IMG/VR virus record: IMGVR_UViG_2711768034_000010
DNA: 12,525 nt
Origin: a virus
Lineage: Duplodnaviria > Heunggongvirae > Uroviricota > Caudoviricetes
Reading direction: 5' to 3' (one strand)
The translations under genes and the position numbers were made by a program. Shown here in pieces: positions 9,952-11,322 of this stretch (its first letter is position 1; every line of letters starts with the position of its first letter). The notes beneath the pieces were generated by a model. That model saw only the letters and a list, made by a program, of their open reading frames with translations, was not told the DNA's origin and did not search any database.

Positions 9952-10251
9952 ATGGCTAAGACAGCAAAACAACTGATTAAACAGGCGTACGAAATAGCCA
10001 AAACTATGCCACCAGAACAGGCAGCAATCATCAAGGAACTGGCTACCGTCCTCGATGTTTCGAATGTAGCTCTGCGCCAGACGCGCACCGAACGTGACGC
10101 CCTTCTTGCAGAGGTCAAATCATGGGCGAAAGAGTGTGATCGCCTGACCGAGCGACACACCAAGAATCGCACAAATATGCATGTTCTAGAGGCTATGCGC
10201 GATTTGAAGGCAATTTGCCCCACCAGCTTCCGTAACGTGGAGGCTCTCTGA
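9952..10251 (+). CDS. Hypothetical protein, 99 aa, first gene of the int-proximal operon
   Basis: ATG 9952 with GGAG about 9 nt upstream. Stop TGA (10249-10251) overlaps the next ATG (10251). No family recognised. Confidence 0.6.
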   Translation: MAKTAKQLIKQAYEIAKTMPPEQAAIIKELATVLDVSNVALRQTRTERDALLAEVKSWAKECDRLTERHTKNRTNMHVLEAMRDLKAICPTSFRNVEAL

Positions 10252-11036
10252 TGGCTAAAGACTCAAAGCTGGTATATGGCGCGAGTGGCAAAACGAACGT
10301 TTTAGCGTTTGAACCTGAAAAACTGCACCTGGTTACCGACAAAACGCACCCGCTTTACGATGAGCGTATCCACCTGCCTATCAGCGAGGCAATGGTGCTG
10401 AACATCATGGACCAGGGCGTTCTTGAGCCGATTATCGTCTGGAAAGACCCGGAAACAGGGCTGTCTTGTGTGGTTGATGGTCGCCAGCGTGTGCGCCATA
10501 CACTGGAAGCCAATAAGCGTCTGTCAAAATTGGGCAAAGAACCGTTACTGGTTCCGGGAGTCCCTAAACGTGGCTCTGCCATTCGCATGGCGCAGGCGAT
10601 GGTAAGTGCTAACGAAATCCGCCAGGCAGATACGCCGCTAGGCCGAGCAAAGAAAATGGCTGATGCGCTGGAGCGCGGGCACGATGAGGATGATTTAGCG
10701 CTGATGTTTGGCGTGAGTGTCCAGACCGTACGCGCAACTCTGTCACTGCTGGATGCCACCCAAGCTGTTCGCGATGCAGTGGAGTCCGGAACGGTCACTG
10801 TTACCCAGGCGCGTCAGTTGGCATCGCTTAAACCCGAAGAGCAACGGGAGAAGGTCAAGCAGATCGAGACAGCGACCGCCGGCACCACGGGCCATGAAAA
10901 AGCTCGGCGTCAGCGTCAGATCCTCGGTGATGCAAAGCCGCGCCTGAAAACCCGCAAAGAAATTACAAAAGCACTCGAAGATGCCAGTGGCGAATATGCC
11001 GAGGCTCTGCGCTGGGTGCTTGGGGAGGCGCAATGA
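10251..11036 (+). CDS. ParB-like nuclease-domain (ParB/Srx fold) protein, 261 aa
   Basis: GGAGG SD 7 nt upstream. Motif EPIIVWKDPETGLSCVVDGRQRVRH resembles the ParB N-terminal domain arginine motif (GxxRxxA-type). C-terminal half is charged and helical-looking. Confidence 0.75.
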   Translation: MAKDSKLVYGASGKTNVLAFEPEKLHLVTDKTHPLYDERIHLPISEAMVLNIMDQGVLEPIIVWKDPETGLSCVVDGRQRVRHTLEANKRLSKLGKEPLLVPGVPKRGSAIRMAQAMVSANEIRQADTPLGRAKKMADALERGHDEDDLALMFGVSVQTVRATLSLLDATQAVRDAVESGTVTVTQARQLASLKPEEQREKVKQIETATAGTTGHEKARRQRQILGDAKPRLKTRKEITKALEDASGEYAEALRWVLGEAQ

Positions 11037-11167
11037 ATTTTGAACCTGAGAATTACAGCAAATACACCCTGCGTCGGCTCGCCGCCCTGTTAGATGTGAT
11101 CTGCTGGGTGCTGATTGCCGTAGTAACCGTTGGTATCTGCATGTTTATTGAATGGTGGACAGCATGA
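11033..11167 (+). CDS. Micro-ORF, 44 aa, predicted single-pass hydrophobic peptide
   Basis: Hand translation MNFEPENYSKYTLRRLAALLDVICWVLIAVVTVGICMFIEWWTA. ATG overlaps the ParB-like stop (ATGA) and its stop overlaps the next ATG (ATGA). Below the ORF-track length cutoff. Confidence 0.4.
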   Translation: MNFEPENYSKYTLRRLAALLDVICWVLIAVVTVGICMFIEWWTA

Positions 11168-11322
11168 GCAACGTAACCAAACCAACCAGCAAGGGGAAAT
11201 TTGATGGGGCAGTTGATTACCTCTGCTCCGATGAGGCTCGTTTTCTGGTTATGCGGGGCGACTATAGCGAAGCAGATATTATCCAAGCGTCTGTATCCCA
11301 AGATGTGATTGATGCTGAATGA
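11164..11322 (+). CDS. Micro-ORF, 52 aa, acidic, immediately upstream of int (xis position but not Xis-like in composition)
   Basis: Hand translation MSNVTKPTSKGKFDGAVDYLCSDEARFLVMRGDYSEADIIQASVSQDVIDAE. Start overlaps the previous stop; stop overlaps the first codons of int. Confidence 0.4.
   Translation: MSNVTKPTSKGKFDGAVDYLCSDEARFLVMRGDYSEADIIQASVSQDVIDAE

Follow-up and report, generated by a model that had tools for sequence, protein, structure and literature searches.

A close counterpart of the locus considered here is the pL operon of phage lambda, in which a repressor, a moron expressed in lysogeny, a terminator, an operator-flanked promoter, accessory genes and int follow one another on one strand. 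In lambda, cI-rexAB lies upstream on the same strand, the genes are tightly packed and overlap, and the operon ends in xis-int. Grounded cryptic prophages of E. coli provide a second point of reference. In these remnants, which lie at tRNA genes, internal deletions have produced fused ORFs, and replication, lysis, morphogenesis and excision functions have been lost while immunity genes and morons were kept.

A class of orphan ParB-like proteins is already known from lambdoid and Burkholderia phages. Very distant ParB relatives in lambdoid early-left and early-right operons have been listed without an assigned function (PMC12315714), and orphan prophage proteins with a ParB-CTPase fold and a GxxR P-motif have been described (bioRxiv 10.1101/2025.10.10.680097).

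Intact relatives of the locus are represented by Klebsiella phage KpF5 (OR327748), the serU prophage of E. coli SCU-308 and the int/excisionase region of Salmonella phage ST64B. They share with it a block of genes for a 99-aa protein (p99), a ParB-like protein and a 44-aa micro-protein (p44), at 85–94% DNA identity, the same int (99.5% identity; 78.6% for ST64B) and the same tRNA-Ser site. Between p44 and int, the intact relatives keep at least 1.4 kb that includes a 114-aa gene, an EaA/DUF550 gene, a 79-aa gene and a DUF4224 excisionase-type gene, and their Int is the full-length, 330-aa protein.

Results and discussion

A remnant prophage at tRNA-Ser(CGA)

The DNA analysed, here called the window, is a stretch of 12 525 nt. 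It carries an early-left operon, controlled by a repressor, that belongs to a defective lambdoid prophage located at a serU-type attachment site, the tRNA-Ser(CGA) gene at 12399–12488 on the minus strand (found with ARAGORN; Rfam tRNA 57 bits). A 78-nt partial duplicate of this tRNA gene is present at the other prophage end in locus L001. The prophage has decayed to a remnant of approximately 12–14 kb, and 10 E. coli genomes have the whole remnant in common. No head, tail or lysis genes were found in it. Besides the deletion described below, the remnant has lost sequence in two or more other internal deletions. The ORF at 5176–6018 is a RusA/tail-fibre fusion, and a replication gene is missing at about 6748. 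The remnant does not differ in any essential way from the grounded cryptic prophages of E. coli, and is a further instance of them.

A gene for a RacR-type prophage repressor of 158 aa (7741–8217, plus strand) lies upstream of the operon and on the same strand. Its product matched the NCBIfam model NF049929 TransRepsrRacR (E 4e-76, 254 bits against a cut-off of 200), and the gene is labelled racR in an identical E. coli record. An intrinsic terminator at 9571–9592 (plus strand; 9-bp GC-rich stem, 4-nt loop, run of eight T) closes the unit made up of the repressor and an endonuclease gene, a moron, just ahead of the early-left promoter. The candidate for this promoter is pL-like, with TTGACA and TAACAT separated by 17 nt at 9627–9655 on the plus strand (10/12 matches in a promoter scan; region 9612–9655). 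It is flanked and overlapped by operator-like palindromes, TTAGGCTAAGCCTAA at 9612–9626 and TTAGGCATAACCTAA at 9638–9652, and the same palindrome recurs at 7674–7688, 7699–7713 and 7734–7747, between a cro-like gene and racR. We infer that the palindrome is the operator, an assignment which, like that of the promoter, is a pattern match only. A terminator-like hairpin, with a 13-bp stem followed by a T-run, is located directly 3' of int at 12290–12319 on the plus strand. Apart from the tRNA, the Rfam search returned no RNA family anywhere in the window, the 300-nt leader included.

Transcription would start at the repressor-controlled promoter near 9627–9655 and proceed through a leader of approximately 300 nt into p99, the ParB-like gene, p44, the next accessory gene and int. 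The ParB-like protein and p44 would then be made only once the RacR-type repressor is lifted. The order of elements on one strand is that of the lambda pL operon, as are the tightly overlapping genes and the heterobivalent integrase (lambda Int, 1z1b, E 9e-13). However, the repressor is of the RacR rather than the CI type, there is no N gene, and the accessory genes are p99, ParB-like and p44 in place of Red, gam and kil. Further, deletion has removed xis and the first eight codons of int.

An initial annotation had described five co-oriented, closely packed ORFs forming an operon with int as the last gene, chained by four stop/start overlaps, and this layout was confirmed when each overlap was checked on the sequence. 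The first gene, p99 (9952–10251, plus strand), encodes a basic protein (pI 9.3) and its stop codon overlaps the ParB-like start in a TGATG at 10249–10253. The ParB-like gene and p44 overlap in an ATGA at 11033–11036, p44 and a 52-aa ORF in an ATGA at 11164–11167, and the 52-aa ORF and int at 11312–11322. Packing by stop/start overlaps of 1–4 nt is usual for a phage early operon. The ParB-like/p44 overlap is an ATGA in 8/8 loci compared and also in L020, and p44 shares an equal 4-nt overlap with the next gene, whichever gene that is, wherever the annotation starts the downstream gene at its family start. These two overlaps are real gene-boundary features. The overlap at 11312–11322 is not conserved; a three-way comparison traced it to a deletion junction at this position, without which it would not exist.

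The 52-aa ORF is a deletion scar

The initial annotation placed the 52-aa ORF (11164–11322, plus strand) in the position of xis, and suggested that it might encode a non-canonical directionality factor, a DNA mimic or an anti-defence protein. Instead, it proved to be what is left of a member of the 102-aa phage gene family phrog_28696, cut off after its N-terminal half. The ORF matched positions 1–51 of the 102 in the profile (E 4e-23), short of a full-length match, while its homologue in L004 (Klebsiella phage vB_VIPKPNMC05) matched positions 1–102 (E 1e-61). Its DNA is 99.4% identical to the first half of the L004 gene (L004:5015–5323), covering codons 1–52. Approximately 70 of the 78 clusters in the family are 96–108 aa long, and the only 56-aa forms belong to the window's own allele; translation from an ATG further upstream, at 11152, would here yield 56 aa, but family alignments favour the start at 11164. 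The final TGA of the ORF is integrase-derived sequence read out of frame.

The position of the junction is 11317–11319, with the 102-aa gene to the left and int from codon 9 to the right. The window follows L004 up to GATGCTGAA and then follows int of L002 and L003 from AATGAGTGG on, with a 2-nt microhomology, AA, at 11318–11319. BLAST segments break at 11168 and 11318, and in all 10 genomes with the deletion the match begins at the same base. In this lineage, an illegitimate deletion at the 2-nt microhomology fused the 102-aa gene, after its codon 52, to int at codon 9. As in the intact relatives, the operon beyond p44 would originally have comprised a 102–114-aa gene, EaA/DUF550, others, a 75-aa DUF4224 gene and the gene for the 330-aa integrase. 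The deletion would have taken the rest of the 102-aa gene, all of the downstream accessory genes, xis, and the start of int together with the basic N-terminal tail that it encodes, leaving as by-products the 52-aa ORF where xis would be and the stretch that this ORF shares with int. The half phrog_28696 gene that is fused to int codon 9 belongs to a different accessory family from the gene in that place in the intact relatives. Among the relatives compared, no single prophage combined an L004-type 102-aa gene with this xis-int pair, as the exact ancestor would have done before the deletion, and mosaic relatives therefore served to deduce how long the deleted segment was and what it contained. 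The joint would fit a single deletion, or a recombination joint between two phages followed by deletion, equally well.

The chance that the junction is an assembly or sequencing artefact is negligible. Frameshift-like errors are seen in one metagenome copy, P0077, and nothing more specific favours an artefact, while 10 complete E. coli genomes, each sequenced independently, show the identical junction, and 51 contigs in the protein collection encode the same 56-aa product. The independent assemblies rule the artefact out. P0077, a 56-aa homologue with only 73% identity, was considered as an independent short form and rejected; the neighbouring genes on its contig are fragmented, and the contig is a metagenome assembly in which the same allele appears with many errors.

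We considered whether the 52-aa ORF could nevertheless be a functional substitute for Xis, a DNA mimic or an anti-defence factor in a streamlined int module. It is in frame, immediately precedes int and has a stop/start overlap with each neighbour, PGAP calls it a CDS, and the allele is unchanged in 10 genomes from different hosts. Its product is acidic, as originally described (pI 4.3), but so is the full-length parent (pI 4.7), from which the property is inherited, and because the DUF4224 protein is mildly acidic too (pI 5.8), acidity does not discriminate. The ORF is not a member of any known Xis or RDF family (lambda Xis, DUF4224/phrog_1266, AlpA and PrtN types), has no Pfam match, and phrog_28696 is its sole PHROG match. 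When its conservation was assessed, the 52-aa form was found only at the one deletion junction, in a single remnant lineage made up of the 10 genomes plus metagenome copies of the same allele. It was not found as a complete gene beside its cognate int in relatives; those with the same int have DUF4224 adjoining it. Given also that the ORF is half of a 102-aa family, that its stop codon is out-of-frame int sequence and that the int following it has lost its own start, a functional role of this kind is highly improbable, and the truncation evidence largely refutes it. The 52-aa ORF is thus best read as a deletion scar and not as an excision or anti-defence factor. The truncated peptide could still be translated and might retain part of the function of the corresponding half of the full-length protein.

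The missing excisionase gene and a clipped integrase

The claim that two micro-ORFs stand in place of xis did not survive comparison with relatives, as every relative without the deletion has a xis-type DUF4224 gene immediately ahead of the same int. This 75-aa gene matched Pfam DUF4224 (E 1e-12) and phrog_1266, annotated 'excisionase' (E 1e-29), and a PDB sequence search with its product returned nothing meaningful and no relative of solved structure. It abuts int in L002, L003 and L015, in 16 of the 26 E. coli genomes that carry this int, the remaining 10 being the deleted form, and in 15/15 phage records with this int type, including ST64B, where RefSeq names it excisionase. On the strength of these PHROGs and RefSeq annotations, the DUF4224 gene is the putative usual xis-type gene. 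No xis homologue was found in the window or in L001. The initial annotation had named a canonical xis elsewhere as evidence against its reading, and in spirit that is what was found, with xis present in the relatives and deleted here.

The int gene (11312–12286, plus strand) encodes a lambda-type tyrosine integrase of the ST64B/KpF5 type and is without its native start and first eight codons. Its start could be a fortuitous ATG at 11312 (PGAP) or a TTG at 11309, and an internal Met12 at 11327 can also be read. The product is 99.7% identical to residues 9–330 of the intact 330-aa Int, and the catalytic and core-binding domains of a lambda-type integrase are present (Pfam Phage_integrase 40 bits against a cut-off of 27, in addition to the match to lambda Int given above). 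The N-terminal arm-binding domain with its basic tail is not intact, residues 1–8 (MGRKRAPG) having been deleted. The native N-terminus, MGRKRAPGNEW..., aligns positionally to MGRRRSHERRD... of lambda Int, and the deleted residues probably correspond to the flexible tail of lambda Int. According to the title of a 2009 study by Fadeev et al. (cited in PMC4880445), immobilising a flexible tail of the lambda Int amino-terminal domain reportedly aids DNA recognition. With no excisionase and with the arm-binding N-terminus of Int clipped, the element is probably locked in the chromosome. Int may be translated from the ATG at 11312 or from Met12 and may keep some activity.

Taken together, this is very probably the early-left operon of a decayed lambdoid prophage of RacR immunity, in which the 52-aa ORF arose by a deletion that removed xis and the start of int.

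An orphan ParB-like protein

The second gene of the operon (10251–11036, plus strand) encodes a 261-aa protein of the ParB/Spo0J type, in which a ParB/Srx-type fold at the N-terminus is combined with a ParB HTH domain, and the original assignment as a ParB-like protein was upheld. The DGRQRVRH motif that had been pointed out is present and aligns with the GERRYRA box of Thermus Spo0J. The HTH domain matched Pfam HTH_ParB (PF17762, 43.2 bits against a cut-off of 22.6), the protein belongs to phrog_1033 (E 5e-73), and phmmer returned Spo0J (1vz0, 1.5e-5) and Noc (7ng0, 9e-5) over residues 47–233. Alignment to Spo0J and Noc placed a GxxR P-motif at G77-R-Q-R80 within the ParB-CTPase fold. G77, R78, R80 and N121 are invariant in 25 homologues, and dN/dS for the gene is 0.04–0.21. 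The protein did not reach E 0.01 with the Pfam ParBc model, nor the threshold of TIGR00180 parB_part (25.2 bits against 58.45). An AlphaFold2 model built with 25 homologues, none below 79% identity, was of too low quality to be of use (mean pLDDT 57.7, pTM 0.37).

Like canonical ParB proteins of chromosomes and plasmids (Spo0J, Noc, KorB, VirB), the protein has the N-terminal fold and the central HTH, aligned over residues 47–233, and the Gly and last Arg of box II and the Asn and Arg of box III are conserved. It differs in that GERR has become GRQR and the Glu of ENLQR is Ala, and it falls far below the curated family cut-offs. No parA was found in the window or in any related locus inspected, and no ParA-binding LG(R/K)GL motif could be read in the N-terminus, MAKDSKLVYGASGKTNVL. 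A search of 9600–11400 for palindromic, local parS-like sites turned up no closely spaced inverted repeat of 12 nt or longer. The protein is classed as an orphan ParB-fold/HTH protein, predicted to bind DNA. Nucleotide binding is possible because the GxxR motif has been kept, while hydrolysis is doubtful because the box III Glu of Thermus Spo0J aligns with Ala.

Full-length relatives sharing 51% aa identity are found in temperate Burkholderia phages (phiE125 gp58, phi1026b gp68 and KS9 gp35). The orphan ParB-like proteins of Burkholderia and lambdoid phages also lack parA, are encoded in early-left or early-right operons and have the GxxR P-motif and ParB HTH seen in the window. In the enterobacterial, Klebsiella-centred subgroup, the ParB-like gene is usually followed by a 44-aa ORF, which the Burkholderia phages do not have.

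p44 and its linkage to the ParB-like gene

The p44 gene (11033–11167, plus strand) encodes 44 aa with a single predicted transmembrane helix at roughly residues 17–42, in agreement with the single hydrophobic segment noted initially (Kyte-Doolittle 19-residue mean 2.58). It matched phrog_2936 over its full and conserved length (E 3e-26, 44/44 positions), a family of 45 clusters that are nearly all exactly 44 aa, with M1, Y8, L13, D21 and W41 invariant. Against the most distant copy, in L016, dN/dS is about 0.15 (range about 0.09–0.18), with dS saturated. The conservation asked of this micro-ORF was thus found, in the form of constant length and purifying selection, and p44 is a real gene, whose product is predicted to span the membrane once.

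It is distinctly unlikely that p44 acts as a Hok- or Kil-type toxin, killing the host or halting its growth once induced. The protein is small, with a single hydrophobic helix, and its gene sits in a repressor-controlled early operon, as do lambda kil and Rac kilR. However, the original suggestion found no homology support; there was no Pfam match to Hok_Gef or Lambda_Kil at E < 0.01, and the sole match, to DUF6693, was sub-threshold (18 against 31 bits). No antisense or antitoxin RNA family was found near p44 in Rfam, and lambda Kil is not known to be a membrane peptide, which counts against the Kil reading. The gene is also tolerated in a derelict prophage, a weak point as it is probably repressed there.

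p44 directly follows the ParB-like gene, with the ATGA overlap, in all nine annotated loci that carry it, of which the window and L001 are one allele, and in 25 phage records. This is so whether the pair lies in an early-left or in an early-right operon. The gene ahead of the pair is more variable. p99 is phrog_15091 (E 3e-63, full length), and the same 300-nt p99 gene abuts the ParB-like gene in L002, L003, L004, L015 and L020 and is swapped for other genes in L016, L018 and L006–L014. The ParB-like gene is separable from both neighbours. A scan of genome contigs with the ParB-like protein returned nine loci, in other enterobacterial genera, and 9/9 are without p44 and also without p99; the ParB-like gene occurs without p44 in Burkholderia phages too. 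Within the p44-carrying group, the ParB-like gene and p44 form a conserved two-gene cassette under purifying selection, still intact in the remnant.

One interpretation is that the two proteins form a functional unit, in which p44 tethers or regulates a ParB-fold clamp, linking phage or host DNA to the membrane or serving exclusion or host takeover, and for which the remnant may have been retained. The constant gene order with its ATGA overlap, the persistence of the linkage in both operon positions and purifying selection on both genes are in its favour, as is the match of the ParB-like protein to its relative Noc, which binds the membrane in a CTP-dependent way. It is an unlikely reading all the same, given the loci and phages in which the ParB-like gene stands without p44. 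Nor do the two proteins co-vary, the window's ParB-like protein being 97% identical to that of phage BUCT708 and p44 only 55%. PADLOC returned no defence-system match for either of them, or for p99, p102 and the endonuclease, and the linkage may simply reflect a common mosaic block. That the pair is a dedicated cassette, mobile between the early-left and early-right operons of Klebsiella and E. coli temperate phages, would be a long shot; p44 would then partner a possibly nucleotide-switched ParB-like protein in tethering or excluding DNA at the membrane or in controlling DNA modification or anti-defence.

Conclusions

The loss of xis and the origin of the 52-aa ORF are, overall, an ordinary finding, adding one more clear case of a prophage grounded by the loss of xis and the start of int, beside other deletions. 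RefSeq 'hypothetical protein' entries of 52 (or 56) aa from this lineage are a pseudogene fragment and are unfit for use in mining for directionality factors or anti-defence proteins. The int gene that adjoins the 52-aa ORF is N-terminally truncated.

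Organization of the int-proximal operon

Five co-oriented ORFs (+ strand) occupy positions 9952-12286. They are p99 (99 aa, 9952-10251), a ParB-like gene (261 aa, 10251-11036), p44 (44 aa, 11033-11167), a 52-aa ORF (11164-11322) and int, which starts at TTG 11309 or ATG 11312, ends at 12286 and overlaps the 52-aa ORF. ORF listing and direct reading reproduced all coordinates in the initial annotation, including the TGATG (10249-10253) and ATGA (11033-11036 and 11164-11167) overlaps, and its reading of the five as an operon stands. A tRNA-Ser(CGA) gene (12399-12488, - strand) lies downstream of int.

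The 52-aa ORF and the missing excisionase-type gene

The product of the 52-aa ORF is acidic, with a pI of 4.3. The int genes of the E. coli SCU-308 prophage and Klebsiella phage KpF5 share 99.5% DNA identity with int in the window, and both loci have the order p99, ParB, p44, 114-aa gene, EaA/DUF550, 79-aa gene, 75-aa DUF4224 gene and 330-aa integrase. BLAST alignments of the window with these two loci stop at 11168 and restart at 11318. Between these points lie 150 nt that match the first half of a 102/106-aa gene from Klebsiella phage vB_VIPKPNMC05 at 99.4% identity and a 102-aa gene from E. coli AH04 at 75%. In a side-by-side comparison, the window tracks vB_VIPKPNMC05 up to ...GATGCTGAA and then SCU-308 and KpF5 from AATGAGTGGATGCC, a stretch that is int from codon 9 (MGRKRAPG/NEWMPKG...), with only the dinucleotide AA common to both parents at the junction. 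The TGA closing the 52-aa ORF is int sequence in another frame, and PGAP's int ATG at 11312 is truncated-gene sequence in the int frame. The 52-aa ORF covers positions 1-51 of the 102-position phrog_28696 profile, while the vB_VIPKPNMC05 protein covers 1-102. In a collection of 5.8 billion proteins, this family forms 78 clusters (approximately 70 of 96-108 aa), and the 56-aa entries represent this allele only. A divergent 56-aa copy, considered as an independent short form, was rejected because it is the same allele on a metagenome contig riddled with errors. These comparisons identify the 52-aa ORF as a deletion scar. The supposed acidic micro-ORF 'in place of xis' is an artefact of prophage decay, half of a 102-aa family with a stop codon supplied by int.

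The DUF4224 protein of intact relatives matches Pfam DUF4224 (E 1e-12) and phrog_1266, annotated as excisionase (E 1e-29). Its gene abuts int in 16 of the 26 complete E. coli genomes that carry this integrase; in the remaining 10, the match begins at one identical base. Each of the 15 phage records with an integrase of this type also has the upstream gene, among them Salmonella phage ST64B, whose RefSeq entry calls that gene excisionase. No DUF4224 copy was detected by tblastn in the window or the wider locus of the identical E. coli record. We conclude from these alignments that the excisionase-type gene was deleted in this lineage; DUF4224 is a putative excisionase on the basis of annotation and conserved position. 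With a pI of 5.8, the DUF4224 protein is slightly acidic too, and the earlier contrast between an acidic 52-aa product and canonical basic Xis proteins therefore has no force for this group of phages.

The window int is 99.7% identical to the intact protein over residues 9-330, and similarity to lambda Int (1z1b, E 9e-13) covers its catalytic and core-binding domains. The deleted N-terminus, MGRKRAPG, aligns by position with lambda MGRRRSHE. Lambda Int binds arm sites through its amino-terminal domain (PMC4880445). Arm binding by the truncated int would probably be weakened. Immobilising a flexible tail reportedly aids DNA recognition by lambda Int, to go by the title of a 2009 study by Fadeev et al.

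Decay of the prophage

Ten complete E. coli genomes, 13P484A among them, contain bases 9554-12525 at 100% identity. In the annotated neighbourhood, a prophage remnant of approximately 14 kb, bounded by a partial tRNA copy and tRNA-Ser, adjoins mtfA. It retains tail-fibre/esterase, acyltransferase, Dam-type methylase, cII-like and cro-like genes, racR and an HSDR_N-type endonuclease gene, followed by the five ORFs; genes for the head, tail shaft, lysis and replication are absent. A 280-aa ORF (5176-6018, - strand) is chimeric, with residues 1-62 matching a RusA-like resolvase and 80-279 a tail-fibre C-terminus. This fusion indicates that one deletion took out all that lay between the nin region and the tail-fibre gene, making the ORF, on its sequence, a second deletion scar that marks removal of the late-gene region. 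Relative to the SCU-308 prophage (L002, 2204-3502), approximately 1.3 kb including DUF4222 and a replication-initiator HTH gene is absent at approximately 6748, between the Dam-type methylase (6028-6867) and cII-like (6895-7419) genes, which we interpret as a third deletion. Relative to KpF5, rdgC is missing from the 9694-9867 interval. The whole remnant is common to the same ten genomes at ≥99.9% identity, with IS insertions the sole differences, and this points to a single lineage and a single deletion event.

At the other end of the window, 1-666 includes a transposase fragment (16-282, +) and a partial integrase-like ORF (253-666, -); bases 1-292 lie outside the shared remnant. Within 1747-5197, a tail-fibre/sialate O-acetylesterase-like gene (-) sits beside an acyltransferase/O-antigen acetylase gene (+) of very low GC content (33-37%). 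This pair, shared with E. coli HS at 100% identity, looks like a seroconversion module.

Proposed control of the operon

An HSDR_N/DUF450 'endonuclease' gene (389 aa, 8373-9542, +; phrog_4225; GC 36-40%), a candidate lysogeny-expressed defence moron, separates the repressor gene from the pL-like promoter, where lambda has rexAB. PADLOC returned no defence-system match for it, and in seven of the ten remnant-bearing E. coli genomes a copy of the IS5-like ISKpn26 at this stretch replaces most of the gene. A strong intrinsic terminator (9571-9592) follows, then a promoter-like TTGACA-17-TAACAT (9627-9655). The palindrome TTAGGCTAAGCCTAA lies directly 5' of the -35 hexamer, with a related copy over the -10 hexamer, and recurs three times in the region separating the cro-like gene from racR (within 7670-7750). 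As in lambda, the layout is repressor, moron, terminator, then OL/pL, and we infer that 9571-9655 and 7670-7750 form a lambda-like OR/OL arrangement of putative operators for a RacR-type repressor. With this layout, p99-ParB-p44-(scar)-int would be silent in the lysogen. The leader of approximately 300 nt between promoter and p99 (9662-9951) contains several hairpins (9725-9814, 9829-9846) and has no Rfam match; the equivalent interval in KpF5 carries rdgC and small ORFs.

The ParB-like protein and p44

The ParB-like assignment was borne out by a ParB HTH above the Pfam threshold and by phmmer searches of PDB sequences, in which residues 47-233 align with Spo0J (1.5e-5) and Noc (9e-5), with DGRQRVRH opposite the GERRYRA box and ANEIR opposite the ENLQR box. 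Curated family thresholds were missed widely. The GxxR P-motif, the defining mark of the ParB-CTPase fold in a recent survey (bioRxiv 10.1101/2025.10.10.680097), is retained, with G77 and R80 invariant among 25 homologues. As GERR is changed to GRQR and Ala aligns with the Glu of the Thermus Spo0J ENLQR box, nucleotide hydrolysis is doubtful. No parA gene was found in the window or the related loci inspected, no ParA-binding motif was seen in the protein's N-terminus, and no palindrome was found near the gene (inverted repeats of ≥12 nt with a short spacer, 9600-11400). The family comprises 798 clusters at E ≤ 1e-5 and includes proteins of Burkholderia phages phiE125, phi1026b and KS9 (51% identity). 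A 2025 paper in Genome Research (PMC12315714) had already noted relatives of ParB, very distant ones, in the early-left and early-right operons of lambdoid phages and describes their function as unknown and probably altered. DNA-modification genes recur beside the ParB-like gene in three compared loci (L015, 3632-4708; L016, 3632-4225; L021, 755-2499), namely one DGQHR/DndB-like gene, one MT-A70 methyltransferase gene and, in phi1026b, Mom-like and DNA methyltransferase genes. These neighbours may point to a connection of such orphan ParB proteins with DNA modification.

The p44 product has a strongly hydrophobic core, as first proposed, and matches phrog_2936 across its full length. Its 45 clusters, from Klebsiella, Raoultella and E. 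coli, are nearly all exactly 44 aa, with M1, Y8, L13, D21 and W41 invariant. Against the most divergent copy, in Stenotrophomonas phage vB_SmeS_BUCT708 (55% aa identity), dS is saturated and dN/dS is approximately 0.09-0.18, with reading frame, length and ATGA overlaps kept. This conservation argues that p44 is a real gene. The suggestion that it is Hok/Kil-like found no backing in Pfam, where neither Hok/Gef nor lambda Kil was matched. In every locus carrying it, p44 is immediately 3' of the 786-nt ParB-like gene, whether near int or after replication genes; nine other genera and the Burkholderia phages have the ParB-like gene but lack p44. The two do not co-vary, as ParB is 97% identical between the window and BUCT708 but p44 only 55%. 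In BUCT708 (L016, 2719-3635), a mosaic breakpoint falls exactly at the ParB/p44 gene boundary. This phage appears enterobacterial, and its Stenotrophomonas host assignment may need checking.

The trait that had made this operon of interest, an acidic ORF at the xis position, comes from prophage decay, and the modest question remaining is the conserved ParB-like/p44 pair.
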